From positions 1,817-65,816 of the forward strand of contig JAFTCA010000094.1 of NCBI GenBank assembly GCA_017454945.1: 64,000 nt of DNA, in the 5' to 3' direction. Shown one piece after another: positions 2-27,710 of the stretch. Made by a program: the position numbers and the translations under genes. The number at the start of each line of letters is the position of its first letter. Position 1 is the first letter of the stretch. This DNA comes from Bacteroidales bacterium. Lineage in GTDB: Bacteria > Bacteroidota > Bacteroidia > Bacteroidales > WCHB1-69. A model generated the notes under the pieces. It was not told where the DNA came from and did no database searches. It was given only the letters and a program-made list of their open reading frames with translations.

Positions 2-277
2 ATGGACCCCGTGGTGGCAGACGCCCATCGGCTCATCCCCGACGGCCGCTTCTACAGCGAAAGCTTGTGGATCAACAACTCAAACCACGCTCGCCGCGAC
101 ATGATCATCTCCAACTGGCTCACTGTCATCAACCGCGAATCGGGCATCCGCACATACAACAAGCAACGCCCCACAGCCAAAGGCATCTATAATCTTAACG
201 GTCAGCAACTTCCTCAAGCTCCCGACCATGGAATTTATATCGAGAATGGGGTGAAGAAGGTAAGGATAAAGAATTGA
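2..277 (+). CDS. 3' end (partial) of a probable flavodoxin-like protein with a Prevotella-type C-terminal secretion tail
   Basis: Tail GIYNLNGQ...GIYIENGVKKV resembles short T9SS-type CTDs. Preceding VVADAHRL...SESLWINNSN...NWL resembles the end of Bacteroidales flavodoxin-like proteins (recognition from memory). ORF runs off the window edge. Confidence 0.6.
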   Translation: MDPVVADAHRLIPDGRFYSESLWINNSNHARRDMIISNWLTVINRESGIRTYNKQRPTAKGIYNLNGQQLPQAPDHGIYIENGVKKVRIKN

Positions 278-471
278 CAATTAATAATTTACAATTAACA
301 ATTTGTAATTTATAATGCACAATGCATAATTAAGAACAGAGAACAAAGAACAAATTCAGAATTCAAAGAACAGAAAAAAATAAAGTACAGACGCACGGCC
401 GTGCGTCTCTTCTACAACAATTCAACAATCAACAATTCTTCACTTCTCACTCCTCACTATTCACTTCTCAC
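272..471 (+). repeat. Modular heptamer/octamer array R1 (modules A-B-C-B-[palindrome]-G-F)
   Basis: 12 in-phase heptamers 272-355: AATTGAC AATTAAT AATTTAC AATTAAC AATTTGT AATTTAT AATGCAC AATGCAT AATTAAG AACAGAG AACAAAG AACAAAT. Then AATTCAG/AATTCAA, CAACAAT units, and TTCTCAC/TCCTCAC/TATTCAC units. Confidence 0.9.
385..415. repeat. REP-like palindrome
   Basis: Perfect 20-bp palindrome AGACGCACGGCCGTGCGTCT (389-408), preceded by GTAC and followed by CTTCTAC; resembles GTAG...CTAC-type REP elements. Confidence 0.65.
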
Positions 472-518
472 CTAATTGCATCATAATTTCACAACTTCAT
501 AACCAAACACCTATCATC

Positions 519-989
519 ATGAAAATCAAATTTTTATTACCCTTAATCGTATTAGGTATTATGTTATCATCCTGCAAAAAGGATATGAAAATCCAACCGC
601 CGGCACCTGTTCCGCAAAAAGCCGACTCCATGTTTGTCCTTGTTATCCAAGGCGACACCTTTAATGCTACCATGTCCGACAACGCAACGGCCGAGGCATT
701 TGCCGAAATGATGCCCCTCACTTTGACCATGAGCGACTTGAACGCCAATGAGAAATATCATTACATTGACCAGCAGCTACCTTCGAAACCTGTAGCCGTC
801 AAAACCATCCAAACCGGTGACATCATGCTCTACGGAACATCTTGTATTGTACTGTTTTACAAAGACTTGACAACACCCTACGAATACACCAAAATCGGAC
901 ACATCACGAACACCGCCCGCCTGATGGAGGCCGTTGGCGCAGGTAATGTGGACGTGGCGTTCGACGTGAAAGCGAAGGAAGAGGAATAA
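519..989 (+). CDS. Cyclophilin-like fold lipoprotein
   Basis: Lipobox LSSC; PLTLTMSDLNANEKY...GDIMLYGTSCIVLFY...YTKIG is typical of the cyclophilin-like family. Confidence 0.8.
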   Translation: MKIKFLLPLIVLGIMLSSCKKDMKIQPPAPVPQKADSMFVLVIQGDTFNATMSDNATAEAFAEMMPLTLTMSDLNANEKYHYIDQQLPSKPVAVKTIQTGDIMLYGTSCIVLFYKDLTTPYEYTKIGHITNTARLMEAVGAGNVDVAFDVKAKEEE

Positions 990-996
990 AGAGAGG

Positions 997-1176
997 CAAT
1001 TCGCAATTAAGAACAGAGAACAGAGAACAGAGAACAAAGAACAAAGAACAAATTCAAAGTTCAAAATTCAAAAATCTATAACTCTTAACTTCTTAGTTCC
1101 TTAACTTCTTAACCATTCACTACTCACTCCTCACTTCAAAGATTAAACAATTCAACAATCCAACACTTCAACCATC
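997..1176 (+). repeat. Modular array R2 (A-B-C-E-F-G), ending at the ATG of the ADH gene
   Basis: GAACAGA x3 and GAACAAA x3 (1011-1052), TTCAAA(G/A) x3, TTCTTAAC-type octamers, TCACT heptamers, then TTCAACAA-type octamers abutting the ATG. Confidence 0.9.
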
Positions 1177-2343
1177 ATGAACGGCAATTTTAAATACTGG
1201 AATCCAACCAAATTATATTTCGGCGAAAACTCATTGAACTATCTGGCCGACGAACTCAAGAACTACGGTCCTGTGGTAATGCTCTCATACGGAGGCGGTT
1301 CTATCAAACGCAATGGCATTTACGATGCTGTCATCGACATTCTCAAGAAAGCTGGCAAAACCATCATTGAGGATGCCGGTGTAATGCCCAACCCCACGGT
1401 AGAGAAGTTGTACGAAGGCGCACGCATGGCCCGCGAAAACAATGTGGACCTGATTCTGGCAGTGGGCGGCGGCTCAACCATCGACTACGCCAAGGGCGTG
1501 AGCACCTCCGCATGGTGCGAAGAGGACCCGTGGCAGAAATACTACCTCCGCGGTGAGGAGGCCACCTGCAAAGTGATTCCTGTGGGCAGCATCCTGACGA
1601 TGGTCGGCACGGGCAGCGAGATGAACGGCGGCAGTGTCATTACCAACCACGCCGAAGGACTGAAAGTAGGCAAAGTGTTCGGTCCTTACGCCTTCCCGAA
1701 ATTCACCATCCTCAACCCGACATTCACCTACACAGTTCCTCAATATCAGATGGTTGCAGGCTTCTACGATATTATGTGCCACATCTTGGAGCAGTATCTG
1801 AGCGACGATGACGACAACACCACCGACTACATCGCCGAAGGGCTGATGCAATCGCTGATACGGAGCAGTCGCGTGGCAGTGAAGAACCCGCGCGACTACG
1901 AAGCACGCTCGAACATCATGTGGACAGCCACTTGGGCACTGAACACGCTCCTCAAAATGGGCAAATCCACCGACTGGGAAGTGCACATGATTGGCCAAGC
2001 CGTTGGCGCCCACACCAATGCCACCCACGGCATGACCTTAGCGGCCGTTTCGATGGCCTACTACCACCACATTCTGGATGCCGGCCTGCCCAAATTCGTG
2101 CGCTTTGCCCAAAACGTTTGGGGCATCCACGGCGAGGGCAAATCTGACCGACAGATTGCAGAAGAGGGCTTACAAGCATTGGAGGCATGGATGCGCGAGA
2201 TTGGCGTGGTGCTGCACCTGAAGGAACTCGGCGTCACCGACGAGATGATTCCCGCCATTGCCGACAGCACCTTCCTGCTCACTGGCGGCTACAAGACGCT
2301 CACCCGCGAAGAAGTGATTGAAATTCTGAAAGAAAGCATGTAA
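1177..2343 (+). CDS. Iron-containing alcohol dehydrogenase (butanol dehydrogenase/YqhD-like)
   Basis: NPTKLYFG, YGGGSIKRNG, AVGGGSTID, GTGSEMN; metal ligands in D..CH, H and HG motifs. Confidence 0.92.
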   Translation: MNGNFKYWNPTKLYFGENSLNYLADELKNYGPVVMLSYGGGSIKRNGIYDAVIDILKKAGKTIIEDAGVMPNPTVEKLYEGARMARENNVDLILAVGGGSTIDYAKGVSTSAWCEEDPWQKYYLRGEEATCKVIPVGSILTMVGTGSEMNGGSVITNHAEGLKVGKVFGPYAFPKFTILNPTFTYTVPQYQMVAGFYDIMCHILEQYLSDDDDNTTDYIAEGLMQSLIRSSRVAVKNPRDYEARSNIMWTATWALNTLLKMGKSTDWEVHMIGQAVGAHTNATHGMTLAAVSMAYYHHILDAGLPKFVRFAQNVWGIHGEGKSDRQIAEEGLQALEAWMREIGVVLHLKELGVTDEMIPAIADSTFLLTGGYKTLTREEVIEILKESM

Positions 2344-2897
2344 TGATGGGCGACTACAAAATCATTTCCGAACGGCAGGAAAAGGTGTTGCACTATCTGG
2401 AAGAGCATAACATCCCGTTTACGACCTACAACCACCCTGAAGGCAAGACCATCGAGGAGGCCAAGCGGTGGTGGCACGACGACGGCAGTATGCATTGCAA
2501 GAACATCTTCATGCGCAACCATAAGGGCGACCAGCACTACCTGATCTGCTTCCCCTGCGATGACGACTTGGCCATTCACGATATCGAGCACTGGCTGAAG
2601 GATGTATTAGTTTCACAAGGGATGAAAGCGCCCGGCAAGCTCTCGTTCGCCTCACCCGAGCGGATGATGCGCTACTTAGGCCTGGAACCCGGCAGTGTCA
2701 GCCCTTTCGGCTTGATTAACGATACGGAGCACCACGTGATACTATTCTTAGACAGACGACTGAAAGATGCCCCCTCACTGAGTTTTCACCCGAACGACTG
2801 CCGTGGCACAGTGGTCATCACCCAAGAGGCGTTTCAAAAGTACTTGACCAGCGTAGGCAATAAAGTGGAATATATTTGTACAGAGGCAAAGTCCTAA
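2343..2897 (+). CDS. YbaK/ProXp-ala (PrdX)-type aminoacyl-tRNA editing protein
   Basis: HCKNIFMRNHKG, LSFASPERM, PGSVSPFGL, FHPND motifs. Confidence 0.85.
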   Translation: MMGDYKIISERQEKVLHYLEEHNIPFTTYNHPEGKTIEEAKRWWHDDGSMHCKNIFMRNHKGDQHYLICFPCDDDLAIHDIEHWLKDVLVSQGMKAPGKLSFASPERMMRYLGLEPGSVSPFGLINDTEHHVILFLDRRLKDAPSLSFHPNDCRGTVVITQEAFQKYLTSVGNKVEYICTEAKS

Positions 2898-2898
2898 A

Positions 2899-4005
2899 TT
2901 ACCGTTCAAACGACAGCTGGAGAAGATAAAGCCCCTTGTTGCCAGCCTCTTTGGCTTGGGTAGCAAGCTGCCCGATGGCAGATTCTGCACTGCGACCGAC
3001 ATCTATGATAAGGCCGTGCTTCATGTCCGTGAAAGCCGTGAGCATGGCCACATCGCCATTGCTGTCGCCGGCAACCAGCACAGGTCCGGCATTGCCATGC
3101 GAAGGCGCCATATACGCCCGGATGCAGTCCACCTTCCCCTCCCTATTGGGCTGCTCATAATTTTGGTCGAACTGCGCTACAATCCTCTCTCCCGCAACAA
3201 AACGGAGTCCAAACACCCTATCTGCGGACAGGCCGAGCCCTAACACAGGATCGCAGGCCAGCGCTTCCACAATGAGTTCCAAAGAGGCAGAACAGATATA
3301 TGTGTCAATCCCCGCCTCTTCGAGACAGCGATACAGATTTTTCATCTCGGGAGAGAGCCAGATGCCGCGTTGCACATCGCCACCCCAACGGCCGTCGGGC
3401 GAACGCCACTGCTCAACAGCCAACTTGTTCCTACCCAAATGCTCGACAATGGCCTCATGGACAAGCTCTTTAGCCTCGACTTCGGTATAGCCTGCTAGCA
3501 GTCCGGGCTGCCAAAGGTAGGTCACCCAACTGCCCCACTGCTCATCCATCGCCTCCATAAGAGACAACATGCGAGCACGAAAGTCGAGGTACTCGTCTGA
3601 TTGACGAATGACTTCGATGCTTTCGCCCGCATCCAACCTCGACTTAAGAATTTGATACTCAGCCGACAGAACATCCCCCATCTCTGCGTAAGTCAGTCCC
3701 ATCTCTGGCATTGCCTCTTCTGGTGTTGGAATGCCGTCCAAGAAGTGGTGGATGGGGGCATCGGCAAAACGCAGATGCTCAATCTGATATACCCAGAGAG
3801 CATTCGAAATGTCGTGTACGATGGATGTCTGGTCGAAATCGAACACGGCATACGAGCCATGCCCAGCATTGGCCATAAGTTCATTAAGTGCTTCCCGCAC
3901 CTGCGGGTCCCACTTGCCTTCCTGAAGGATTACCGTTTCAGGTTCACGGGTACAAGAAACTGCCAGCAATAGGCAGAGGGCGCTGATGAAAAATTTTCTA
4001 ATCAT
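2899..4005 (-). CDS. HAD-superfamily phosphatase, lipoprotein
   Basis: Lipobox AVSC; HAD motifs DFDQT, ICSAS, GK, GDSNGD. Confidence 0.85.
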   Translation of the reverse strand: MIRKFFISALCLLLAVSCTREPETVILQEGKWDPQVREALNELMANAGHGSYAVFDFDQTSIVHDISNALWVYQIEHLRFADAPIHHFLDGIPTPEEAMPEMGLTYAEMGDVLSAEYQILKSRLDAGESIEVIRQSDEYLDFRARMLSLMEAMDEQWGSWVTYLWQPGLLAGYTEVEAKELVHEAIVEHLGRNKLAVEQWRSPDGRWGGDVQRGIWLSPEMKNLYRCLEEAGIDTYICSASLELIVEALACDPVLGLGLSADRVFGLRFVAGERIVAQFDQNYEQPNREGKVDCIRAYMAPSHGNAGPVLVAGDSNGDVAMLTAFTDMKHGLIIDVGRSAESAIGQLATQAKEAGNKGLYLLQLSFER

Positions 4006-4073
4006 TTACCGATGATGAATTTCTGAATGCACAATGAAATTACAATATTACAAAAAATTCTTCCAAAAAACCG

Positions 4074-4104
4074 TTGTAAAAAAGTGACAAAATACATATC
4101 TTTG
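4074..4104 (+). promoter_or_regulatory. Bacteroidetes sigma-70 promoter of the Na/Pi cotransporter gene
   Basis: TTG (4074-4076), N20, then TATCTTTG (4097-4104), 19 nt before the ATG. Confidence 0.7.
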
Positions 4105-4123
4105 CAGCCGAAAAAACAACCGT

Positions 4124-6088
4124 ATGTTAGTTGCCTTGAAACTCTTGGGCTGCATTGCCCTTTTGATATACGGCATGAAAGTCATGAGCGAGGCCCTGCA
4201 GAAAATGGCGGGTCCGCAATTGCGCCACCTTCTAGGCGCCATGACCACCAACCGCTTCTCTGGCGTCGCCACCGGCGCCCTCGTCACTGTCGCTGTCCAA
4301 TCTTCGGCGGCCACCACGGTTATGACGGTTTCGTTTGTCAACGCCGCCCTCCTCACACTGGCGCAGGCTATCTCCATCATCATGGGCGCCAACATCGGCA
4401 CCACGATGAGCGCCTGGATTATGTCGGCAGGCTTCTCCTTCAACATCATCAACGCAGTGTGGCCAGCCTTCCTCATCGGCATTGTCCTCATCCAGATGGG
4501 CAAACACCGCTACATCGGCGACTTCCTCTTCGGACTTTCCTTCTTGCTTTTTGCGTTGGGCATGCTACGACAGACCGGCATTGAAATGGACCTTGCCAGC
4601 AAGCCCGAAGTGGTGAACTTCTTCGCCTCGTTCGACTCGGGAAGTTACCTCACCATTCTGCTTTTCCTACTCATTGGCACTATTCTGACCTTCATAGCCC
4701 AATCCTCCGCAGCGCTCATGGCCATTACCATGGTGCTCTGCTCTACCGGCGCCATCTCCATCTTCCAGGGCATTGCACTGGTTATGGGCGAAAACATCGG
4801 CACCACGCTCACCGCCAACCTTGCAGCCCTGTCGGCCAACACACAGGCGCGAAGAGCGGCTATGGCACACTTGCTGTTCAATGTTTTCGGCGTCATTTGG
4901 GTACTGATAGTGTTCTATCCTTTCGTGAAATTGGTTTGCCGCATCGTAGGCCTTGACCCGACGGCCGACACCATCGATACGGCGCGACTTACTTTTGCGC
5001 TGGCGACATTCCACACAGGATTCAACGTTATCAATACAACCCTGCTCATCGGATTCATCCCGCAGATAGAGAAAATCGTCTGCAAAATCATACGCTCCCA
5101 GAAGGTTGACGATGAAGACGAATTCCGCCTGCAGTACATTCGCGGCGGTATCATGAAAACCCCTGAAATCTCCGTCCTGCAGGCACAGAAAGAGATTATC
5201 GTCTTTGGCGAGAAGACACAGCGTATGTTCGCACTGGTGCAGGAACTTTATAACACCAAAGATGAGCAGACCTTCACCAAACTATTCGAGCGAATACAGC
5301 ACGGCGAAGAAGGCAGCGACCGCATGGAAAACGAGATTGGCCGCTACTTGGGCGATGTGGGCGCAGCTCACCTTTCCGATGAGACCAAAGAGAAAATCCG
5401 CGCCATGCTCCGCCAGATTGGCGAGCTGGAGTCTGTGAGCGACAGCTGCTTTAACTTGGCACGCACCATTCGCCGCAAGCGAAACAGCAAGATTGCCTTC
5501 ACCCAACAGCAAGACGAAGGCATTCAGAAGTTATTCGGTCTTGTGAATGAAGCGCTTACGAGAATGAACGTCCTTCTCTCCGGCCGAAAGGAAGAGTACG
5601 ATATTGCGCAGTCGGAAGATATGGAACACCAGATCAACGCTTGTCGTAACAGCCTCAAGCAACAGAATATCGAAAACCTCAACGCTCGCTTGTACGGCTA
5701 CGATGAAGGCACCGTCTTTGCCGACCTGTTCAACGAATGCGAAAAGACGGGTGATTACATCATCAATGTGGTGGAAGCCCGTATGGGTGCGGTAAGAAAC
5801 GGCATCCGCTTCCGCGGTATCCAGATTGATACGGACGCAAAAACAATCAGCGTGGACGGTGAGGAGGTTTCTTTCACCAAAAACGAATACGAACTGCTGA
5901 AATTCTTCCTGGAGAACAGGGATAAGGTTTTCTCTAAAGACCAACTGCTTTCGGCTGTATGGCCCGATGATGCTACAGCCACACCACATTTGGTGGAAAT
6001 GACCATCACGCATATACGAAGGAAAATCGGCCCCTATGCCGACAACTTGGTGGAACTCCAAGGCTGGGGCTACTCATTCCAAGAATAA
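4124..6088 (+). CDS. Na+/phosphate cotransporter (NptA family) with PhoU-like region, fused to a C-terminal OmpR/PhoB-type winged-helix domain
   Basis: Two QSS..A / GANIGTT-GENIGTT repeats; PhoU-like helices (ELESVSD, ECEKTGDYIINV); tail FTKNEYELL...VFSKDQLLSAVW...ITHIRRKI...GWGYSF. Confidence 0.9.
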   Translation: MLVALKLLGCIALLIYGMKVMSEALQKMAGPQLRHLLGAMTTNRFSGVATGALVTVAVQSSAATTVMTVSFVNAALLTLAQAISIIMGANIGTTMSAWIMSAGFSFNIINAVWPAFLIGIVLIQMGKHRYIGDFLFGLSFLLFALGMLRQTGIEMDLASKPEVVNFFASFDSGSYLTILLFLLIGTILTFIAQSSAALMAITMVLCSTGAISIFQGIALVMGENIGTTLTANLAALSANTQARRAAMAHLLFNVFGVIWVLIVFYPFVKLVCRIVGLDPTADTIDTARLTFALATFHTGFNVINTTLLIGFIPQIEKIVCKIIRSQKVDDEDEFRLQYIRGGIMKTPEISVLQAQKEIIVFGEKTQRMFALVQELYNTKDEQTFTKLFERIQHGEEGSDRMENEIGRYLGDVGAAHLSDETKEKIRAMLRQIGELESVSDSCFNLARTIRRKRNSKIAFTQQQDEGIQKLFGLVNEALTRMNVLLSGRKEEYDIAQSEDMEHQINACRNSLKQQNIENLNARLYGYDEGTVFADLFNECEKTGDYIINVVEARMGAVRNGIRFRGIQIDTDAKTISVDGEEVSFTKNEYELLKFFLENRDKVFSKDQLLSAVWPDDATATPHLVEMTITHIRRKIGPYADNLVELQGWGYSFQE

Positions 6089-6093
6089 CGCCC

Positions 6094-6543
6094 CTACTCT
6101 CTCTTTTTCCGTTTGATTTTGTGTAAGAAGAAATTGAAGGCTTCGAGACCTATCAGTACCAAGATGGTACTGGCAGTGGCGATGATATACATGCCGCCGC
6201 CGCAAGCTAAGCCAATCGCGGCAGTAACCCACAAGCAGGCCGCCGTGGTGATGCCGCTGACTATATTCTCACTCTTATGAAAGATAATCGCGCCGGCGCC
6301 AATGAAGCCGATGCCCGAAACCACCTGCGCTGCAATACGCGCCACATCCCAGCGGGAAGTCGCCACCATGGGCACCGTGCTAAAACCGTAGGCCGAAACA
6401 ATCATAAACAGCGCAGAGCCAAGCGCCACCAAGAAATGCGTGCGGAAACCCGCCTCCTTGGCACGGTATTCACGCTCCAAACCTATCAAGCCACCCAACA
6501 CCGTGGCCGCAAATATACGTAGTACAAATTCCCACTCGGACAT
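6094..6543 (-). CDS. MgtC/SapB family membrane protein (N-terminal domain only)
   Basis: GLERE...AGFRTH, RIAAQVVSGIGFIGAG, GITTAA. Confidence 0.92.
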   Translation of the reverse strand: MSEWEFVLRIFAATVLGGLIGLEREYRAKEAGFRTHFLVALGSALFMIVSAYGFSTVPMVATSRWDVARIAAQVVSGIGFIGAGAIIFHKSENIVSGITTAACLWVTAAIGLACGGGMYIIATASTILVLIGLEAFNFFLHKIKRKKRE

Positions 6544-6548
6544 AATCT

Positions 6549-6672
6549 TTTACAATTTATAATTTACAATTTATAATTCACAATTAAGAACAAAGAACCA
6601 ATTCAATAACCCTTATCTCCATTCCGCAAGCGTAGCGCAGCGGAATCTCCTTCACTTTTCACTCCTCACTTC
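6549..6672 (+). repeat. Modular array R3 (A-B-C-E'-[hairpin H]-F), antisense to both flanking genes
   Basis: AATTTAT AATTTAC AATTTAT AATTCAC AATTAAG AACAAAG, AATTCAA, TAACCCTTA, hairpin 6617-6646, then TTCACTT TTCACTC CTCACTT. Confidence 0.85.
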
Positions 6673-7420: not shown

Positions 7421-7503
7421 ACTCCAAATATTAGGTTGCAAAAATAATGAAAATAATTTCCTCAGCACAAAGCCACCTTGTTCCTAAATTTGAAAATTTT
7501 ACG

Positions 7504-7511
7504 TACATTTG
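7504..7511 (+). promoter_or_regulatory. -7 promoter box for rmuC
   Basis: TACATTTG matches TAnnTTTG; array R4 would lie within the 5' UTR. Confidence 0.6.
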
Positions 7512-7529
7512 CACTCCACAGCAAGGCGA

Positions 7530-7686
7530 AGAACAAAGAACAGAAAACAAATTCAGAATTCAAAATTCAAAAATAGATTTTAGATATTAGTTTTTAGTTT
7601 TTATAAATTCACTCCTTAACTCCATTCCGCAAGCGTAGCGCAGCGGAACCTCTTTCACTATTCACTATTCACTATTCACTCTTAAC
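7530..7686 (+). repeat. Modular array R4 (B-C-I-E'-[hairpin H]-F)
   Basis: AGAACAA/AGAACAG, AATTCAG/AATTCAA, TAGATTT TAGATAT TAGTTTT TAGTTTT, hairpin 7620-7648, TTCACTA x3. Confidence 0.88.
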
Positions 7687-7698
7687 CCCAAATTCCCC

Positions 7699-10983: not shown

Positions 10984-11206
10984 ATCGTTGAATTGTTGAT
11001 TGTTTAATTGTTGAAGTGAGAAGTGAGGAGTGAATAGTGAGGAGTGAATAGTGAATGGTTAAGAAGTTAAGGAACTAAGAAGTTAAGAAGTTGAGAATTA
11101 TGGAATTATGGAGTTATGGAGTTATGGAATTCTGAATTTGTTCTCTGTTCTTAATTGTGAATTATAAATTATAAATTGTCAATTGTAAATTGTTAATTAT
11201 AAATTA
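10984..11206 (-). repeat. Modular array R5 (A-B-C-D-E-F-G; most complete copy)
   Basis: Minus strand: AATTTAT AATTAAC AATTTAC AATTGAC..., AAGAACAG AGAACAA, AATTCAG, (T/C)TCCATAA x4, TTCTTAAC-type octamers, TTCACTA/CTCACT heptamers, TTCAACAA-type units. Fills the cupin-thioesterase spacer. Confidence 0.92.
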
Positions 11207-14408: not shown

Positions 14409-14486
14409 ATTCCCTTGCGGGAATTAAGATTTTAGTTGTTAGTTTGAAGTATGACATAAGTCGCTAACAACTAACAACTAAAATCT
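14409..14486. terminator. Hairpins between convergent genes (likely terminator region)
   Basis: ATTCCC-TTGC-GGGAAT (14409-14424), plus a perfect 18-bp IR AGATTTTAGTTGTTAGTT (14427-14444) / AACTAACAACTAAAATCT (14469-14486). Confidence 0.6.
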
Positions 14487-14520
14487 ATTTTGAATTCTGA
14501 ATTTTGAATTTTTAATTTAA
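14427..14520 (-). repeat. Modular array R6 (C-I on the minus strand, plus an inverted copy of I)
   Basis: Minus strand AATTCAA AATTCAG AATTCAA AATAGATTTTAG TTGTTAG TTGTTAG; same C-to-I junction as R4. Confidence 0.8.
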
Positions 14521-20293: not shown

Positions 20294-20341
20294 TGTATGA
20301 CTTTAATTTATGAGTTTCAGTATACTATTTTTTAGAAAAGG

Positions 20342-20349
20342 CAAATATA
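20342..20349 (-). promoter_or_regulatory. -7 promoter box for leuS
   Basis: TATATTTG on the minus strand. Confidence 0.6.
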
Positions 20350-20378
20350 CGGGAAAATGTAGAATTATGAGAGCGAAA

Positions 20379-20490
20379 AGTTAAGAAGTTAAGAAACTAA
20401 GAAGTTAAGGGTTATTGAATTTTGAATTTGTTCTCTGTTCTTTGTTCTTTGTTCTCTGTTCTTTGTTCTTTGAATTTTGAATTTTGAATT
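20379..20490 (-). repeat. Modular array R7 (C-B-C-E)
   Basis: Minus strand directly after the LytTR stop: AATTCAA x3, AGAACA(A/G) x6, AATTCAA-type x2, then TAACCCTTAAC TTCTTAG TTTCTTAAC TTCTTAAC. Confidence 0.9.
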
Positions 20491-21219: not shown

Positions 21220-22256
21220 TTTTCTAACAAATTGATATTCAATAATACATGATAAGTATCACCTTCATCTTTAATCTCCAATTGATACTTTTTATCATAA
21301 TAATGCTGCAGCTGCTGCACCACATTGGAGATGCCGATACCGTCGCGCTGCTTGGAAACCACCTGTGACACAGCACTTTTGGTATTAATAGCTTCAAAGG
21401 CAAGTCGGCCATTCTCCACCCCTATCTCAATCTTGATGTAGCCATTCGCATTAGTGGCTATGTCGCCATGGATAAAGCAGTTTTCGACCAGCGGTTGCAA
21501 AAGCATAGGCGGAATCAGCAAACTGGTATTATCCACCCGATGGTGATAAGTGATGTCCTTCTCGCCGTATTTCACCTTCTGCAGATTGATATAATTCTGT
21601 ATATAATTGATTTCCTTTCCAATAGGAACATAATCCGACTGGCATTCATCGGTAATGTAGCGACACATGTCGGCCATTTGCAGTATCGATTCAGGAGCTT
21701 TCTCATCGTGCGTATAGACCAGCGAATAGATATTATTGAGCGTATTGAATACAAAATGCGGGTTGAGTTGCGAGCGCAACATTCTCACTTCCATCTCTTT
21801 CTTCTCCATCTGCAGTTGCTCCAAATTGCACTGCTTGCGCGAATAGTTCGACAGCAGCCATGTAATATAGGTACCAAGCACCAGCATCGCCACCTTAAAG
21901 AAATGATAGATATCCCTTTCGGGAATACGTTCCACCGAAACCAAATCTAAGATAAGATTGTCGAGTTGCACTAACAGCAAAATCGTCACCATCAAAACGG
22001 CAAACATGACCAGATAGGTGTGGTATTTCTTTTTCTTTTCGAAATATCTGTGTATCAGTGTACATATATCATAAAAAAACATCAGATACAAAGCATCGAC
22101 AAAAGAGAAGATGGCCGCATTACGTATGTTGAAACGGTAGCCGCCCAAAAACAGCAATAGGAATATGCAGATAAAGACAATAATACTTTGATGTCTCCTT
22201 AATAGACCATCCCACAACCTTTTACCCCATGTAGAGACATCTGTACTCTTATTCAT
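21216..22256 (-). CDS. LytS-type sensor histidine kinase
   Basis: N-terminal TM segments; SQLNPHFVFNTLNNIY, PPMLLQPLVENCFIHG, GIGISNV. Confidence 0.92.
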   Translation of the reverse strand: MNKSTDVSTWGKRLWDGLLRRHQSIIVFICIFLLLFLGGYRFNIRNAAIFSFVDALYLMFFYDICTLIHRYFEKKKKYHTYLVMFAVLMVTILLLVQLDNLILDLVSVERIPERDIYHFFKVAMLVLGTYITWLLSNYSRKQCNLEQLQMEKKEMEVRMLRSQLNPHFVFNTLNNIYSLVYTHDEKAPESILQMADMCRYITDECQSDYVPIGKEINYIQNYINLQKVKYGEKDITYHHRVDNTSLLIPPMLLQPLVENCFIHGDIATNANGYIKIEIGVENGRLAFEAINTKSAVSQVVSKQRDGIGISNVVQQLQHYYDKKYQLEIKDEGDTYHVLLNINLLEK

Positions 22257-22267
22257 AAAGGTTGTTT

Positions 22268-23116
22268 TTAATCGTGGCGACGCTGAAATTTGGCAGCCAC
22301 CCAGTTGTTTTTCTCTTTATTGGAAACAAAATCGAGGCCACAGCGGGCGGCTTCGGCTTTGATGGCATCCAAATCTTCACCTTGGTAGAAGCCGCTAAAG
22401 AAGATTATACCGTTATCATTCAATACCTTAACATAATACTGCATATCGCGCAGCAGAATATTGCGGTTGATGTTGGCGATAATCACATCGTAGTGCATAT
22501 CGTGCAAGGCGGAGGCATCGCCTAAGATAACGCGAATGTCAGAAACGCCGTTGCGGGCGTTGTTCTCAATGTTATTCTCGTAGGCCCACTCGTCGTTATC
22601 GATGGCGGTCACAGGTGATGCGCCGCGCATACGCGCAAGAATCGCTAACACACCGGTGCCGGCGCCCATATCGAGCAGTTCCTTGCCAGCCAGCGGCTCT
22701 TCGAGCACGTACTCAATCATCAGAGAAGTGGTCTCGTGGTGGGCCGTGCCAAACGACATCTTCGGTTCGATGACGATTTCAAAGTCAACATCATCGCGAT
22801 GCGGATGAAACGGCGCACGGATATAGCAGCGATTGGCAATGAGTACAGGTGAGTAGTTCGACTCCCACAGCGCATTCCAGTTCTGCGCCTCAATCACCGA
22901 TGTCGTATAGGTCACCTCCACCCCGAAAGGATTCTCTTTCAGCAGTTGGCGAACAACCTCTTCATCATAATCCGACTCTTTCACATACGCCAATAGCGTA
23001 GTTTCTGAGTCACCGTCCATAAAGCTGTCGCAGCCAGCATCCGACAAGATAGAGGTGAAGACATCCTTCCACGGGTCGGCGGCCGGCAACGAGAGTTTGA
23101 GTTCTATATAGTTCAT
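22268..23116 (-). CDS. prmA: Ribosomal protein L11 methyltransferase
   Basis: NWNALWE, PKMSFGTAHHETT, LDMGAGTGVL, ANINRN. Confidence 0.95.
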   Translation of the reverse strand: MNYIELKLSLPAADPWKDVFTSILSDAGCDSFMDGDSETTLLAYVKESDYDEEVVRQLLKENPFGVEVTYTTSVIEAQNWNALWESNYSPVLIANRCYIRAPFHPHRDDVDFEIVIEPKMSFGTAHHETTSLMIEYVLEEPLAGKELLDMGAGTGVLAILARMRGASPVTAIDNDEWAYENNIENNARNGVSDIRVILGDASALHDMHYDVIIANINRNILLRDMQYYVKVLNDNGIIFFSGFYQGEDLDAIKAEAARCGLDFVSNKEKNNWVAAKFQRRHD

Positions 23117-23147
23117 CTTAAGTATTTTAAGCCTTGCAGATCAGCTA

Positions 23148-25016
23148 TTACCAGTGGTAGGTGATTTTGCCTGAAGTGGTAAACCACAAAGTGTCGGTTG
23201 TAGTCGATTTCTTCGGGCGGATAACCACTTTGTAGTAGTTCTTGCGATCGGTAGCCTTAACGGTATAATATTCCACCACTTTAGAACCTTTATAATTCTC
23301 TTTCAGATAGTTCTGAATAGTCACGGTCACATTGGCCGGATCGAGAGTGGTGTGGGTTTCCAAAATCGTACCATCGGGTTTGATGTAGCAATATTCTTTT
23401 GAGCGAACACCCTGATACTCGGCCACATAGTTACCGTCTTCCATCTTCCATTCGGGCACCTTGCTGGCATATTTGGCCTTGAAGGCGGCCTTCACAGGGG
23501 CAGGAATATTGGCATCGGCGGGCTCTGCATCCTCGTCGTCACCGGCCTCAGCAGCGGCTTCAGCGGCCAATTCAGCAGCCTCGGCAGCAGCTTCTGCTTC
23601 GGCCTCAGCGCGGGCAGCAGCCTCTTCTGCTTCCACCTCATCGGCATCCAAACCCTCTTTGGTCACTCTCTTCAGATACTTGCCGTTAAAGTCGAAATAG
23701 AGTGTTTCGTACTTGGAAGTAACACCTTCGGGCTTAATCTCTATTACATAGATAGTTCCAAGGTCATCATCAGTCATCGAGGAGCAGGATTTGTAGCCCC
23801 AGTTGGGATAGTGCTGTTTTACATACTGTTGCAACTGATAAGGCAGATTGCTCTGGTTGATTTCGGTTGCGAGCGGGTCTTCTTCGGCGTCGCCCATATC
23901 GATGTTCTTATACATTTTATCCATCTTATCCAAATCCTTCTCGCTACCAAAGCGATCATCTTCGCCCATAGCGTATTCGGGGTCGATGGTGCGGATTAGC
24001 TTGCCGGTCTTGTCGAATACCATGGCGGTCACCAATTTCGATTTCTTGTTGGCCTTCTCATAGATTTCCACATAGGTCTTGTCTTGCTTGTCGGCGCGAA
24101 TCTCTTTCTTGGCGCTCACAAACTTGTAACCCTTGTAAGTGTTATTGATATGCTTCAGCATGGCGCCAGTCACCGACTCCTCGCCCAATTCAACGTAAGT
24201 CTTTTCCCACACACCCTCAGGCGTGATATAAACCTCGGTTGGTTTCAGTTTGGCGATACATTTGGCCACATAGACACCTTTCTCTTTGTACCACTTCAAC
24301 TCTTCGGGGCGTTGCACTTTCTTGGAGAGCGCCTTGGTCACAGCGGGAGGTATTGAGCTGGGGTTCAATTCTTTCGGAACGACAGGTTGGGGAGCACCCT
24401 TCTTCTGTTTGGTCTTGGCAGCCTTGTCGGCGGCGGGTTTGTCGGCTTTGGCCACAGCCTCGGGCTTGTCGGCCTTCTCGGCTTTCTCCTTCACTTTCGG
24501 TTCTTCGGCCTTCGTCGGCTTGGGTTGCGGTTGCGGAGCCACATAAGCCACAAAGCCTTCAGGATCCTTGCGTTCCATCAGCGCACCCTTATCGGTAAAG
24601 GTCAGCACCGAAGGTTCTTTGCCGACGCCGTCTTCTTTAACTTCCACATAATAGTGCAGTTGCACTTGCGGCAACGATTGCAGACGAGCCACGCTCACAC
24701 CGCAGTTGGGGTAATTGCTTTTCACATACTCCATCACATTGGTAGGCAGCGAGTTCTTGGGAATGTCAAAATAGTCTTTCACCCAGGTGCCATCGTTGGC
24801 AATAAAACATTTGCCTACGGAGCCATCTTCCTTAAAGGTAGCCACATAGCAATTCTCGCTCAAAGTCCACTGGGAAACCTTGCCGCCAGGGTGTTCAAAC
24901 TCGAAGGACTGCTGTACATCACCGGGCACATCATCCAATTTCAGTTTCTGGGCGTATGCCGACTGCCCGAACAATACGAAGCACAACACAGCCACTAACA
25001 GGAGAAGTTTTTTCAT
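23148..25016 (-). CDS. Exported multi-repeat PepSY-like (BLIP-like) protein
   Basis: Signal peptide; about 7 recurring units of the (L/V/I)P..V...(F/Y)...YP type, many ending F..DG; Lys/Pro-rich and Glu/Ala-rich linkers. Confidence 0.75.
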   Translation of the reverse strand: MKKLLLLVAVLCFVLFGQSAYAQKLKLDDVPGDVQQSFEFEHPGGKVSQWTLSENCYVATFKEDGSVGKCFIANDGTWVKDYFDIPKNSLPTNVMEYVKSNYPNCGVSVARLQSLPQVQLHYYVEVKEDGVGKEPSVLTFTDKGALMERKDPEGFVAYVAPQPQPKPTKAEEPKVKEKAEKADKPEAVAKADKPAADKAAKTKQKKGAPQPVVPKELNPSSIPPAVTKALSKKVQRPEELKWYKEKGVYVAKCIAKLKPTEVYITPEGVWEKTYVELGEESVTGAMLKHINNTYKGYKFVSAKKEIRADKQDKTYVEIYEKANKKSKLVTAMVFDKTGKLIRTIDPEYAMGEDDRFGSEKDLDKMDKMYKNIDMGDAEEDPLATEINQSNLPYQLQQYVKQHYPNWGYKSCSSMTDDDLGTIYVIEIKPEGVTSKYETLYFDFNGKYLKRVTKEGLDADEVEAEEAAARAEAEAEAAAEAAELAAEAAAEAGDDEDAEPADANIPAPVKAAFKAKYASKVPEWKMEDGNYVAEYQGVRSKEYCYIKPDGTILETHTTLDPANVTVTIQNYLKENYKGSKVVEYYTVKATDRKNYYKVVIRPKKSTTTDTLWFTTSGKITYHW

Positions 25017-25146
25017 TTGAAGATACTTTTATATAAATAACTTATTTTTAATTCATTACAAAATAAAAGAAAACTTTTAAAGTGAACTATTCATCTCTAA
25101 AAACAACACTCTCAAGCCCTTTTATCTCAAAAAACGAATATGAGCG

Positions 25147-25209
25147 CAAATATACAATTATTTTCATAAATGATATCTGAAAGAATCAAAAGAATTTTTA
25201 CTAATTTTG
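25147..25209. promoter_or_regulatory. Divergent -7 promoter boxes (PepSY-like gene / lemA)
   Basis: TATATTTG on minus (25147-25154) and TAATTTTG on plus (25202-25209). Confidence 0.55.
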
Positions 25210-25343
25210 TGCTTGACAGCCTTTGTTGTTTGGACAAGAGTCAACTCTTTTGTATTCAAACAGCAAGGCTCAAAAATATTTTCAGGAAAACATACTAATT
25301 CGCGAATTATTCCATTATTAATACAAAAACAAAAAACAAGATT

Positions 25344-25940
25344 ATGAAAAAGACTAGTACCACCCTACTGATTGTGATTGGCCTCATTGTTCTTTGCGCC
25401 ATTTGGGGCATCGGCATTTACAACAAGCTTGTGAAAGAAGAAGAGCAGGTAAGCTCTGCTTGGGCACAAGTGGAGAACGCCTACCAGCGCAGAGCTGACC
25501 TCATTCCCAACCTCGTGAAGACTGTGAAGGGCGCCGCCGACTTTGAAAAAGGAACACTTGAAGCCGTAATTGCAGCACGTTCGGCAGCCACTTCCACCAC
25601 CATCGACCCCACCAACCTCACCGAAGAGAACATGGCTGCCTTCCAAGCCGCTCAAGACAACTTGAGTTCAGCCTTGAGCCGACTGATGGTAGTTGTGGAA
25701 CGATATCCCGAACTGAAAGCCAACCAGAACTTCCTCGAACTGCAATCGCAGCTGGAGGGCACTGAAAACCGCATCAGTGTTGAGCGCAAGAACTTTAATG
25801 AGAAAGTGCAAGCTTACAACACCTACATCCGCCGTTTCCCCACAAATATAGTGGCTGGCATGTGCGGCTTCGACAAGAAAGCCTACTTCAAAGCAGAAGA
25901 AGGTGCCGAGAAGGCTCCCGAAGTGGAATTCGAATTCTAA
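25344..25940 (+). CDS. lemA: LemA family protein
   Basis: YQRRADLIPNLV.TVKG, ERYPELKANQNFLELQ.QLEGTENRI. Confidence 0.95.
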   Translation: MKKTSTTLLIVIGLIVLCAIWGIGIYNKLVKEEEQVSSAWAQVENAYQRRADLIPNLVKTVKGAADFEKGTLEAVIAARSAATSTTIDPTNLTEENMAAFQAAQDNLSSALSRLMVVVERYPELKANQNFLELQSQLEGTENRISVERKNFNEKVQAYNTYIRRFPTNIVAGMCGFDKKAYFKAEEGAEKAPEVEFEF

Positions 25941-25946
25941 CCAAAC

Positions 25947-27464
25947 ATGAAACGCTGGGCATTGTTTGTCAGTTTGTTATGTTCCACTATGCTCCTATGG
26001 GCGCAGTGGACTCCAACAACCGTGCCCAATCCGCTGACAACGGAACAGTCGTTCATTGCCGACCCCGACCATCTGTTGTCGGACGAGGACAAGGCTGCCT
26101 TCAACGAGATGGCCTACCGCCTCGATGACTCGGCCGGCGTGCAGTTTGCCGTGGCTGTGCTCAACAGCATCGACGACCACTACGAACCGTTCGACTTTGG
26201 TGTGGAGTTGTATAACCATTGGGGCATCGGCCGCAACGACCGCGGACTTCTACTGCTGGTCGTGATGGAGACTCACGACTGGCGGTTCCATACAGGTTAT
26301 CGTATGGAGGAGATTCTCACCGATGCCCAGTTGCGCCGTATTGGCGAGAACAATTTAGTCCCCTACTTCCGCGAAGGGGAGTATGGTCAAGGCATTTTAG
26401 AGGCCACACGCACACTGTCGAAGATACTGCTATCGGAAGACCCGAAAGCTGCCGTCGCCCTTATGCAAGAACAGCAAAAGCAGGAGCGCTGGAGCAACTT
26501 CCGCAAAATGGTTTACATAGGCTGGGCGCTGGTAGCCTTCATCGGCGTTTTGGTCTTGCTTCACAAGCCCAAGAAGCGCAACCATTACCGCGGTGCCTAC
26601 GACATATTGCTGGTCAACGACCATTTTGCCAAAATCACACCAAATTCACTACCAAATAGTTACACTCGACCTGGACTCAATATAGAGAAATTCTTCACGT
26701 TCTCAATAGTGTCAGCATTCATTCCCATTGCTGTCAACACCGAGTTGATTTCCGAAAATCCGTTCAGCAACTTCATCTTCGCCCTGTTCGTCTGTCTGGT
26801 CATCGACGCCATCATCGCCCAGTGGCGTATCTGCACAACGGCTGCCGAATCCAGCACACCGCAGGAACACATGCAAAAATTGCAGAATGGCAATCAGTTA
26901 CTACCGCTACGCATCGTTATTATGCCTCTGATATTCGTACCTTACTACTTCCTTTATAAGAAGAAAGTGGCGCAACTCAAAACAGCGGGCTACCCCTGTC
27001 CCTTCTGTCATCTGCCCACCTCGTTAGCTTCAAAAGCTATCGTACAACAACACCTTACTGGCTCTGCCCTCATCGAGCAGCAATTGAATGTGTATGAGTA
27101 CCAATACTTTGAATGTTCCTCGGGACACTGCACAGAAGTCTCTTACAAAGGTCCCAACTACGCCAAATATAACACCTGCAGTCATTGCGGAGCACGGACT
27201 GTCCTTTCTGAAGGCAGCTACACCGTAAAGCAGCCTTCGTTGTTGGCTTCGGGGCTCGAGCGCACCGACTATACCTGTCAAAACTGCCATAACCATTACT
27301 TCACGACGAAGGTACTGCCAAAGTTGATGGTTGCATCGACAGCCGCAGGTATGGGCCGACACAGCGGTGGCTTTGGCGGCGGATTCGGCAGTGGCGGGTT
27401 CGGCGGAGGACACTCCTTCGGTGGCGGCTTCACCGGTGGTGGCGGCGCTGGAGGAAAGTGGTAA
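25947..27464 (+). CDS. TPM-domain membrane protein with Cys-rich putative zinc ribbons and Gly-rich tail
   Basis: IADPDHLLS, WGIG...GLLLL, TGY..E.ILTD, PYFREGEY; CPFC, CSSGHC, CSHC, CQNC; FGGG.TGGGGAGGKW tail. Confidence 0.85.
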   Translation: MKRWALFVSLLCSTMLLWAQWTPTTVPNPLTTEQSFIADPDHLLSDEDKAAFNEMAYRLDDSAGVQFAVAVLNSIDDHYEPFDFGVELYNHWGIGRNDRGLLLLVVMETHDWRFHTGYRMEEILTDAQLRRIGENNLVPYFREGEYGQGILEATRTLSKILLSEDPKAAVALMQEQQKQERWSNFRKMVYIGWALVAFIGVLVLLHKPKKRNHYRGAYDILLVNDHFAKITPNSLPNSYTRPGLNIEKFFTFSIVSAFIPIAVNTELISENPFSNFIFALFVCLVIDAIIAQWRICTTAAESSTPQEHMQKLQNGNQLLPLRIVIMPLIFVPYYFLYKKKVAQLKTAGYPCPFCHLPTSLASKAIVQQHLTGSALIEQQLNVYEYQYFECSSGHCTEVSYKGPNYAKYNTCSHCGARTVLSEGSYTVKQPSLLASGLERTDYTCQNCHNHYFTTKVLPKLMVASTAAGMGRHSGGFGGGFGSGGFGGGHSFGGGFTGGGGAGGKW

Positions 27465-27466
27465 GG

Positions 27467-27710
27467 GAGATGAGAGATGAGAACGGAAAATTGAAAATTG
27501 AAAACTGAAAATTGAAAACTGAAAAACAAAGAACAGAGAACAAATATAAATTCAGAATTCAGAATTCAAAGAACAAAGAACAAATTTCCATAATTCTATA
27601 ATTCTTAACCCCTTAACCCCTTAGTTCCTTAACTTCTTAACTTCTCACTATTCACTGTTCACTTCTCACTTCAACAATTAAACAATTAAACATTTCAACA
27701 ATTAAACACC
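27467..27710 (+). repeat. Modular array R8 (J-K-B-C-B-D-E-F-G), ending at the ATG of alpha-2-macroglobulin
   Basis: GAGATGA x2, AAAA(T/C)TG x5, GAACAGA/GAACAAA, AATTCAG, TTCCATAA/TTCTATAA, CCTTAAC/TTCTTAAC, TTCACT units, TTCAACAA/TTAAACAA units, then ATG. Confidence 0.92.

Follow-up and report, generated by a model that had tools for sequence, protein, structure and literature searches.

The window, a 64,000-nt stretch from the 2.62-Mb genome of an uncultured rumen bacterium of the Bacteroidales (here G000), carries eight intergenic loci made of runs of short words, the arrays, which are named R1 to R8 in Table 1. The words, designated by letters, number at least 12 and are 7- and 8-mers, with D, E and G being 8-mers. 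An earlier note on this DNA had listed all eight loci, and reading of the sequence, Tandem Repeats Finder (TRF) and regular-expression tokens placed the listed words at the same positions. R1 begins just inside the 3' end of the preceding ORF (stop 277), and 47 nt separate its other end from the ATG at 519, while R2 fills the 187-nt spacer from a cyclophilin-like gene (stop 989) to an Fe-ADH gene (ATG 1177). R3 is oriented opposite to both neighbouring minus-strand genes. A TACATTTG box lies at 7505-7512, upstream of R4, which is therefore probably part of the RmuC 5' leader (ATG 7699). R5 begins at the stop of a cupin gene (11204) and stops 12 nt short of a thioesterase gene (start 10971); R7 begins at the stop of a LytTR regulator gene (20491) and ends before a TATATTTG box (20343-20350, minus strand), which precedes the leuS start (20293). 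R8, the fullest array, fills a 246-nt spacer; it starts 3 nt after a stop (27464) and reaches the ATG at 27711.

For R6 the I and C words given earlier are present, but the description needs revising, as I units form an inverted pair at 14427-14485, followed by minus-strand C units. The hairpin is located in a convergent spacer, has a predicted fold of -25.4 kcal/mol (z -6.9) and resembles the I-armed cassette described below with the ORF missing; on the minus strand the locus reads C > I > loop. The exceptions to a single word order that had been reported, G before F in R1 and the alternation of B and C, are both real. Neither an inverted partner nor an ORF is present at seven of the eight loci, only R6 having an inverted pair, and that without an ORF. 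There is no PF05635 match in the window, in agreement with the earlier statement that it holds no candidate gene. No arrays were found between 27711 and 64000, where every spacer is at most 132 nt long, and Rfam 15 gave no match at gathering score in window positions 1-30000. A two-unit B run absent from the earlier list lies at 25326-25339 (+), in a 327-nt spacer before the gene at 25344.

Table 1. Arrays in the 64,000-nt window.
Locus	Feature	Position	Strand	Order of words and context
R1	Composite array	272..471	+	Between two plus-strand genes; A (272-331), A2, B (332-354), C (353-366), GC hairpin (389-408), G (415-438), F (439-471)
R2	Composite array	997..1176	+	B > C > E > F > G
R3	Array	6549..6672	+	A > B > C(1) > hairpin hp1 (6621-6646) > F
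R4	Array	7530..7686	+	B > C > I-like > hairpin hp1 (7624-7649) > F
R5	Full array	10984..11206	-	A > B > C(1) > D > E > F > G
R6	Hairpin	14427..14485	.	Arms of I units (TTGTTAG) and their complement; 19-nt loop; no ORF
R6	C units	14487..14520	-	Directly after the stop (14523) of a minus-strand gene
R7	Array	20379..20490	-	C > B > C > E
R8	Fullest array	27467..27710	+	J > U1 > K > B > C > B > D > E > F > G

Extent, word order and junctions across the genome

The earlier note understated the extent of the arrays, because the window samples a genome-wide feature. TRF returned 703 period-7 and 297 period-8 rows in the 2.62 Mb, and 400 of 558 composite repeat loci are mostly intergenic, the coding ones being short (median 23 nt). 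The 400 intergenic arrays take up 28 kb of the 235 kb of intergenic DNA (~12%). With gene boundaries taken from the analysis' own crude ORF picks, 292 of the 1123 spacers of at least 40 nt hold at least one array and 831 hold none; tokenised word runs inside genes total 19 genome-wide. Each module forms 15-141 runs, against 0-25 in the backward-read genome for 11 of the 12 modules; this control fails for F (78 runs), whose reversed pattern resembles F itself.

The earlier note had proposed that module order be compared with shuffled controls, and on that comparison it is strongly non-random. Across 173 loci, 598 pairs were concordant and 48 discordant, where 1000 within-locus shuffles gave a concordant mean of 323 (sd 17, maximum 374); the word patterns and the reference order for this test were fixed after inspecting the data. 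Pairwise counts, which are free of any assumed order, place C before E in 38/38 cases, B before E in 37/38, C before F in 32/32, B before F in 33/34, E before F in 56/64 and A before E in 16/16. Ordered word pairs almost always share a strand, and 148 of 178 multi-word loci are entirely one-stranded.

Junctions between words recur as well (A-B 25 copies, B-C 45, C-B 53, E-F 54, F-G 17), as do non-repeat linkers (dD 12, hp1 13, F-E 8, I-end 8), against 0-3 copies in backward controls. Within the window, the two junctions for which recurrence at four and five loci had been claimed were counted as such: AATTAAGAACA lies at 328, 1005 and 6582 (+) and 11146 (-), with ~0.03 expected per 64 kb, and ACAAATTCA at five array loci and also at two non-array sites, 33500 and 63732. 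A 22-nt pattern inside the E array has 71 copies (control 0), and 12 loci have in common a near-identical core of ~110 nt with ragged ends made of repeats. These features support the view that the loci are homologous mosaics and not independent microsatellites. The earlier proposal that all loci derive from one composite template holds to that extent, given the fixed junction phases, the E pattern, the linkers and the core; it does not hold for a rigid single template, as several sub-templates can be discerned and some words have position rules of their own.

Independent slippage in place, as in ordinary microsatellites, or faulty assembly has also been considered and is highly improbable. Unit number does change, as the R2 array in bovine run X8, a contig from another study, has one extra 7-nt F unit (ATTCACT), and an excess of heptamer repeats in bacteria has been reported (Rehm 2015, PMC4692102). 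However, slippage cannot yield a shared order, junction phases, linkers or the internal E pattern. The earlier concern that raw data might expose the arrays as artefacts is answered by contigs from two other studies, which enter R2 from both sides, and by a metagenome contig of another strain (L116), which carries the same vocabulary. Assembly artefact is therefore rejected, and we regard both ideas as refuted by the order, the junctions and linkers, the outside contigs and the 12-locus core.

Position, polarity and turnover

In tandem spacers, 101 loci are co-oriented with the genes and 24 are anti-oriented. The array starts at most 3 nt from the stop codon in 42 of the 101 co-oriented loci and at most 10 nt from it in 60, and anchoring is to the stop codon in 70 cases vs the start codon in 30. 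The median relative position is 0.0-0.06 for J, U1, K and A and 0.83 for G. J, U1 and K stand in the sense direction after the stop codon even where the remaining array is inverted, and the G word precedes start codons in sense 25:0, at a median of 29 nt upstream. Along the direction of transcription the arrays run from purine-rich words (A+G 85-90% in J, U1 and B) to G-free ones (0-1% G in D, F and G); G content overall is 7% in arrays and 14% in ordinary 40-nt leaders. The predicted RNA fold is -0.082 kcal/mol/nt for the sense strand and -0.148 for the antisense strand, with sense weaker in 62 of 75, against -0.204 and -0.200 in array-free spacers, and the predicted folding is confined to inserted hairpins (hp1, GC hairpin, dD, I-i). 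A TAnnTTTG box is absent from 117 of 191 array-bearing tandem spacers (61%), which would thus be intercistronic, and 59 tandem spacers have their entire array 5' of the promoter box, clear of the leader of the next gene.

The earlier note had also suggested that orthologous spacers be compared, empty against filled, and both near-empty and differently filled spacers were found. One strain (L051, ~97% identical) has a stretch of 18 nt in place of the 173 nt of the window (994-1166, R2), although in this 1.6-kb metagenome contig the short spacer could be an assembly collapse. In L116 (97.3% identical), the R3 spacer is filled by a different set, A, A2, I, F, D, E, F, and its A/A2 stretch, read by eye, is common to a different locus of G000. 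No arrays were found in the loci of 29 relatives, and among relatives at 68-81% identity a single two-unit A run (L052) was seen in the 21 loci tokenised out of 80 metagenome loci. The E pattern is patchy within one genus (20/54 species), and the E core shows no variation among loci or among three genera. Words differ between genera, and genus g9 has B in reverse complement ahead of E, hence the orientation rules are not universal.

The arrays might be functional transcript elements, with order set by position-specific roles and copying between loci secondary, a rather unlikely reading. The purine-rich words after the stop would form a 3' trailer or ribosome-release context, and the G-free pyrimidine-rich and A-rich words before the start an unstructured leader for initiation without Shine-Dalgarno pairing. 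Stop-codon anchoring, co-orientation, the placing of the G word, the persistence of J, U1 and K in sense, the weakly folded sense RNA, the many spacers without a promoter box and the G-poor character of ordinary leaders are all in its favour. The position rules of J, U1, K and G fit such roles as well as they fit copying. A translational role has been proposed for TAACTGA repeats just upstream of starts (MacGregor 2015, PMC4679880). However, a ~97% identical strain without R2 and another with other words in R3 indicate that the arrays are dispensable and interchangeable, 831 of 1123 spacers do without them, and they are anchored more often at the stop than at the start. The 59 arrays upstream of a promoter box, the 24 inverted loci and the different words of different genera also count against functional roles, which leave the fixed junction phases and shared linkers unexplained.

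PF05635 cassettes and a proposed origin of the arrays

PF05635 is the 23S-rRNA-intervening-sequence protein, a four-helix bundle. Intervening sequences of 23S rRNA that carry an S23p/PF05635 gene occur in Leptospira and Coxiella, and the cassettes of G000 encode the same protein family. Of its eight strong PF05635 genes, seven are flanked by inverted arms, and no two of these seven use the same word (A, K, I, D, E, u2, u3). In grammar-forward direction A, K, I and u2 are upstream arms and D, E and u3 downstream arms (7/7), so that early array words match upstream arms and late words downstream arms. In other genomes, a G133 cassette has G-word arms, with G forward in the downstream arm, and an L200 cassette has F-like arms edged by E. 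The rule is broken by a further G133 cassette (L147), whose downstream arm carries a K-like word in forward direction. The seven words that are also cassette arms, and their side split, lend support to the earlier idea that the arrays are landing pads for small mobile genes or scars left by them.

The window arrays nevertheless differ from the cassettes, as no word pair brackets an ORF and no cassette is known for the commonest words. Arms of B, C, J or U1, which include the two commonest words, were not found among 43 cassettes inspected (8 in G000, 18 of 25 in five related genomes and 17 relatives of the E-type protein), and G000 has no cognate PF05635 gene for B, C, J, U1 or G. Inverted same-word pairs hold ~3% of runs and ~97% are unpaired (B 0/123, F 0/120, G 0/32, J 0/25, with U1 also 0), and for almost all runs we thus infer their origin as orphan arms.

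It is improbable that the words are cis sites, with each PF05635 paralogue binding its own heptamer array as DNA or RNA, spread being driven by the protein and the ordered mosaics serving as multi-site platforms for processing or regulation. The separate word of each of the seven cassettes and the invariant E core would suit such binding. E-type protein relatives at 65-79% identity keep E-like arms at the same genomic site in five of seven cases, and those at 51-58%, from other phyla, still have TTAAG/CTTAA-type units. However, co-inheritance of arm and gene explains this covariation without binding, the two close E-type relatives L200 (F-like) and L202 (AT-rich) have other arms, and the words lacking a cognate gene make up a large share of the arrays.

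A transposable non-autonomous element resembling a MITE, BIME or BOX, mobilised in trans by a transposase gene at another locus, is decidedly improbable. The dispersed near-identical cores, presence or absence between strains and the patchy E pattern would be expected of such an element, and the genome holds six Y1 transposase genes and one reverse transcriptase gene. In the flanks of the five Y1 genes viewed, however, GC-rich hairpins were found at four and heptamer arrays at none, with two tiny TRF loci within 1.5 kb of two Y1 genes, and no array lies near the reverse transcriptase gene. Since neither kind of gene adjoins arrays, templated synthesis, which the earlier note had raised, finds no support. 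An alignment of 12 copies revealed a conserved core with ragged repeat ends and neither terminal inverted repeats nor target-site duplications. Tokenised runs are almost never intragenic, and the mosaic differences among loci resemble recombination and not copies of one master.

We tentatively favour, at somewhat below an even chance, a non-autonomous mosaic family of orphaned cassette arms that is spread co-linearly by recombination, resized by slippage, with its polarity maintained by selection on the transcript. The arrays would be a lineage-specific repeat family occupying DNA just 3' of stop codons, built from word arrays that also form PF05635 cassette arms in this genome and its relatives. 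Words may arrive in spacers as cassette arms or ORF-less hairpins, and one arm of each pair would usually be lost, so that words of upstream arms remain on the left side and those of downstream arms on the right. Arrays with words in common would then recombine by ectopic gene conversion, which would copy and reshuffle whole blocks among spacers, with order preserved because the partner arrays are co-linear. Replication slippage would change unit number, and selection may retain the G-poor and almost unstructured sense direction. This member of the Bacteroidota is not known to rely on Shine-Dalgarno pairing, and RNA of this kind would suit its intercistronic spacers. The B, C, J and U1 words without arms in 43 cassettes, the L147 cassette and the orientation in g9 count against this reading.

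Arrays of this kind have partial counterparts among known repeats. BIMEs of Escherichia coli combine REP units with fixed linker motifs, and BOX elements of Streptococcus pneumoniae have the form boxA-boxB(n)-boxC; the modules of both are hairpin-forming units of 30-60 nt. Like them, the arrays are modular, ordered, non-coding, non-autonomous and dispersed in transcribed intergenic DNA, with modules of variable copy number (one module in BIMEs and BOX), and the fixed module order with conserved junctions by which BIME and BOX elements are recognised was found here too. In contrast, the modules here are microsatellite runs with almost no predicted sense structure, and no BIME-type tie to a REP-associated Y1 transposase was seen at the Y1/RAYT-like genes whose flanks were viewed (5/6).

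STRR heptamer repeats are reportedly present in cyanobacteria. Intergenic heptamers have been described as GGGAATC in Xanthomonas and GGGGA(C/T)T in Nostoc (Rehm 2015, PMC4692102), and as TAACTGA in Beggiatoaceae, Cyanobacteria and five Bacteroidetes, with some Bacteroidetes spacers holding 'larger assemblages of heptamer repeats' (MacGregor 2015, PMC4679880). These repeats and the arrays have in common tandem 7-nt units, intergenic location, hundreds of dispersed sets, gene-related orientation and 7-nt length steps between close strains. In the accessible parts of these sources, however, there are one or a few G-rich words per genome in no fixed order, although the supplement of MacGregor (2015) may show mixed arrays, whereas the arrays here are G-poor, have at least 12 ordered words with fixed junctions and linkers, and are anchored at stop codons. 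The earlier claim of an undescribed multi-module grammar thus stands within the literature searched, but heptamer repeats as a class are known. What is new here is the strict word order and the split of words between upstream and downstream arms, and the arrays are a fast-changing, unusually orderly form of the known but unexplained heptamer repeats of bacteria.

Arrays in the window and across the genome

The eight array loci (R1-R8) and the vocabulary of 7/8-nt words proposed for them in the earlier note were borne out by sequence reading and by Tandem Repeats Finder (TRF). A regex tokeniser placed the words in each locus, and located the two recurrent junction words at the loci for which they had been named. 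The neighbours of the arrays are unrelated housekeeping genes (encoding a cyclophilin-like protein, Fe-ADH, MgtC, a flavodoxin/ferredoxin protein, RmuC, a thioesterase, a cupin, LeuRS, a LytTR regulator and a TPM protein). Of the 11 spacers that reach 110 nt or more within the window's first 28 kb, eight hold arrays; the second half holds none, and every spacer there is at most 132 nt. Window positions 1-30000 have no match in Rfam 15 at gathering score. A long ORF begins right where R8, the fullest array, stops.

Coordinates of arrays and related features (window positions, or contig:position in the same genome; words by tokeniser unless stated)
Feature	Position	Strand	Content
R1	272-471		A, A2, B, C, F; G before F (TRF and by eye)
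R2	997-1176		B, E, F, G; C added by TRF
R3	6549-6672		A, F
R4	7530-7686		B, C, F
R5	10984-11206	minus	A, B, D, E, F, G
R6	14427-14520	minus	C and I
R7	20379-20490	minus	C, B, C, E
R8	27467-27710		J, K, B, C, B, D, E, F, G
ORF after R8	27711-33233		1840 residues
GC-rich hairpin in array	389-408		AGACGC-N-GCGTCT type
Same hairpin type, in arrays	C41:~9210; C45:~34100; C113:~2640
hp1 (26-nt hairpin linker)	6621-6646; 7624-7649; e.g. C70:80713, C27:14738		ATTCCGC-loop-GCGGAAT
Stop codon in first unit	C25:21532-21570; C64, window 27467-27482; window 11200-11206
Inverted array after stop	C19:22580		J, U1, K still sense-directed
Match to R3 counterpart	C47:14024		A/A2 run
serC-like/serA-like spacer	C86:85490-85861		PF05635 cassette
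Strong PF05635 gene without heptamer arms	C99:27752-28171
Y1 (IS200/RAYT-like) genes	C86:1014-1481; C105:3499-3954; C112:3361-3843; C26:11523-11981		flanking GC-rich hairpin repeats

Genome-wide (2.62 Mb, 124 contigs, 47% G+C), TRF returned 703 period-7 and 297 period-8 rows, the most frequent units being C (107 rows), B (100) and E (62 + 24), all within the proposed vocabulary. With genes called crudely by us from ORFs (2104 genes, 90% coding), the merged array loci are mostly intergenic (400 of 558). These arrays cover 27,955 bp, about 12% of the 234,657 bp that lie between genes, and 292 of the 1123 spacers of at least 40 nt carry one.

Word order and relatedness of the loci

At least two of the twelve tokenised words occur in 178 loci, and 148 of these keep to one strand throughout. 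Against a reference order (J < U1 < K < A2 < A < B=C < I < D < E < F < G), 598 word pairs were concordant and 48 discordant (173 loci); 1000 within-locus shuffles gave 323 +/- 17 concordant pairs with a maximum of 374, and the module-transition matrix is nearly triangular. The order claimed from the window is thus non-random genome-wide. As the reference order was picked post hoc from the data, a cleaner test is one that assumes no order, asking pairwise whether the second word lies up- or downstream on the first word's strand and whether the strand is shared. The second word was downstream on the same strand in 38/38 cases for C/E, 37/38 for B/E, 32/32 for C/F, 33/34 for B/F, 56/64 for E/F and 16/16 for A/E; B and C were interleaved (39 vs 31).

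The loci also share more than their order. Junctions recur at a fixed phase (A-B 25 copies, B-C 45, C-B 53, E-F 54, F-G 17), as do non-repeat linkers (the d/D hairpin 12, hp1 13, an F-E linker 8, an I-end motif 8), against 0-3 in backward-reading controls. For counts of word runs, the backward reading is uninformative for F, since F reversed resembles F. A core of ~110 nt is near-identical at twelve loci, where both ends break up into B/C and F runs that differ in length, and the conserved inner pattern of the E array, CTTAGTTYCTTAACTTCTTAAC, has 71 copies at up to one mismatch (control 0). Independent origin of each array by slippage cannot yield common junctions, linkers, core and inner E pattern, and is therefore ruled out. 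Judged by their sequences, the array loci descend from a small set of mosaic templates: the descent relationship put forward in the earlier note holds, and its single composite template gives way to several. Transposition of the arrays is an unlikely alternative to recombination as the copying route; the twelve copies of the core have no inverted termini. By eye, the left and right halves of the composite array show no word complementarity (B with E or F, C with E; G-U allowed), and a disguised long hairpin was rejected.

The linker hp1 always has CTCC in front of it and CT(C/T) behind it, and lies between E and F runs or within B runs in reverse complement. It resembles a small REP-like insert in its own right, landing in arrays. 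The AGACGC-N-GCGTCT hairpins, a type distinct from the hp1 family, adjoin hp1 in three places.

Placement beside genes and turnover among relatives

In spacers between co-directional genes, 101 arrays run with the genes and 24 against them. The co-oriented arrays start within 3 nt of the upstream stop codon in 42 of 101 cases and within 10 nt in 60, while only 19 of 101 end within 10 nt of the next start; 70 are closer to the stop and 30 to the start. Median relative position in the spacer follows the grammar (J, U1, K and A 0.0-0.06; B and C 0.22; D 0.43; E 0.59; F 0.75; G 0.83), and individual words are strongly polar (sense to antisense G 25:0, B 72:7, K 18:2, U1 10:0). Behind a stop codon, J, U1 and K are sense-directed, also in arrays whose other words are inverted. 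The TAnnTTTG box, a promoter motif of Bacteroidota, is absent from 117 of 191 array-bearing tandem spacers and otherwise lies downstream of the array in 59, upstream in 7 and inside in 8. Together with the stop-proximal polarity, this places most arrays between cistrons or in 3' trailers; few form primary 5' leaders, R4 probably among them. The upstream gene's stop codon often falls within the first unit (TGA in K or J, TAA in A or B), so arrays may supply or overwrite gene ends.

Base composition tracks the word order, with J, U1 and B at 85-90% purine, E and F at 75-81% pyrimidine, and a G content of 0-1% in the D, F and G words. In 75 array-filled co-directional spacers, the predicted fold of the sense RNA (-0.082 kcal/mol/nt) was weaker than that of the antisense (-0.148) in 62; 284 array-free spacers gave -0.204 sense and -0.200 antisense. 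A purely functional reading of the arrays is less probable than the one favoured below, and a cis code read by a protein is unlikely.

The earlier note had proposed comparing empty and filled orthologous spacers, and only the closest relatives proved informative. One metagenome contig (L051; 96.8% identical over the Fe-ADH gene and 92.5% over the gene upstream) has 18 nt in place of the window's 173-nt R2 array, resembling one A2 unit, the A-B junction and one G-like unit. Another (L116), 97.3% identical over 5 kb, enters R3 with the same A units and continues with A2, I, F, D, E, F instead of B, C, hp1, F; part of this counterpart, an A/A2 run, matches by eye another locus of the window's genome. 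In relatives at 68-81% protein identity, the Fe-ADH orthologue's spacer held no arrays in 29 loci from other genera of the family, and a single stray two-unit A run, in L052, among the tokenised 21 of 80 metagenome loci, so that they offer no empty-versus-filled comparison. Contigs from a sheep and a bovine run of other studies enter R2 from opposite sides, the bovine one with one extra F unit. All aligned sequencing-run contigs end in arrays and none bridges a whole array; those from four runs terminate inside. Many contig "joints" connect different arrays, which reflects common repeats instead of rearrangements, and the joints were set aside.

Elsewhere in the family, 27 of 150 genomes carry the E pattern, which is confined to two genera (g9, 20/54; g15, 7/19) with at most 20 copies each and is found in none of 250 further genomes sampled across the order. 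The B-C junction, with 36 copies in this genome, has 1-2 one-mismatch matches in five of the 150, at control level, and appears essentially private to it. Two other genomes (G135, G138) carry the E core within other ordered mosaics of different words, with the reverse complement of B before E.

PF05635 cassettes and a proposed origin of the arrays

Four-helix-bundle ORFs were among those that the earlier note wanted listed in arrays, and genes of this kind (PF05635) were searched for. The genome has 10 matches, 8 of them strong, and seven of the strong genes lie between inverted arrays (arms), each with its own word: A, K, I, D, E, u2 (AGACTTT) or u3 (AAAAGTT). In all seven, grammar and arm orientation agree: A, K, I and u2, forward in the left half, have the upstream-arm orientation, and D, E and u3, in the right half, the downstream-arm orientation. 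The eighth strong gene has a long AT-rich promoter-like region before it and reverse-complement C units ~250 nt downstream. Five g9 genomes gave 25 matches, and most of the 18 inspected by eye (seven weaker or fragmentary ones excluded) use an arm word of their own; the arms of a g9 cassette at the serC|serA-like site consist of the G word, which reads forward in the downstream one. One g9 cassette (L147) is an exception, with a K-like word forward in the downstream arm.

Among 17 relatives of the E-type protein, seven at 65-79% identity occupy the same genomic site, with arms that are E-like in five, F-like edged by E in one and AT-rich in one; more distant relatives in other phyla retain TTAAG/CTTAA-type units. 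Cassettes in the serC-like/serA-like spacer also occur at L049, L138, L144, L145 and L198-L204, with E, G, F-like or AT-rich arms by species, so that cassettes are exchangeable at this one site. Public records of related loci are rumen and gut Bacteroidales MAGs.

Other enzymes fared poorly as candidates. The one reverse transcriptase gene (RVT_1) is not array-flanked, nor are the Y1_Tnp transposases (flanks of five of six genes), and small genes with arrays on both sides were, PF05635 aside, ordinary genes only. The hairpin repeats beside the Y1 genes, tandem at C86 with a ~55-nt period, form a family separate from the heptamer arrays.

The best-supported reading treats the arrays as a non-autonomous family of mosaic repeats with the words of cassette arms as its building blocks. 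We infer that recombination would copy and reshuffle blocks co-linearly from one post-stop position to another, that slippage would change array length, and that selection may hold arrays in the G-poor, unstructured sense direction. In six words whose arms differ in G content, the persisting copy is the G-poorer in five (A, D, E, u3, G; manual count), I being the exception. Inverted same-word pairs within 900 nt are few (C 3/141 runs, E 3/114) or absent (B 0/123, F 0/120, G 0/32, J 0/25), and no inspected cassette has B, C, J or U1 arms, which counts against a simple "arms" reading.

A bolder and rather unlikely proposal is that the ordered arrays preserve, in layers, successive rounds of cassette turnover. 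As selfish elements, four-helix-bundle cassettes would repeatedly invade the site just after stop codons, displacing one another, as perhaps at the serC|serA-like site with its E, G, F-like or AT-rich arms across species. Each invasion would leave one arm, so that the left of a spacer would gather upstream-arm words and its right would gather downstream-arm words, with hairpins and ORFs at the centre, and recombination would then distribute the stacks across the genome. If so, the excess of bacterial heptamer repeats would be largely the debris of one cassette family, and the array grammar could be read as invasion history.

Heptamer repeats have been on record in bacteria for decades, and to our knowledge they have no established mechanism or function. 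Single-word repeats are described in bacteria (MacGregor 2015, PMC4679880; Rehm 2015, PMC4692102), and mixed assemblages are mentioned in some Bacteroidetes (MacGregor 2015); the arrays here are ordered and multi-word. A full-text literature search found no ordered multi-word heptamer grammar, although the supplements of PMC4679880, outside the search, may show mixed spacers, and no description of PF05635 genes with heptamer arms. With about 12% of intergenic DNA, strict order and polarity, turnover at 97% identity and seven words that are cassette arms, this genome is an extreme, very orderly case and a good study system. Arrays of this kind break short-read assemblies, and could act as high-resolution strain markers in rumen metagenomes. 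Both the origin of heptamer repeats and whether they shape operon expression in bacteria without Shine-Dalgarno pairing become testable here.
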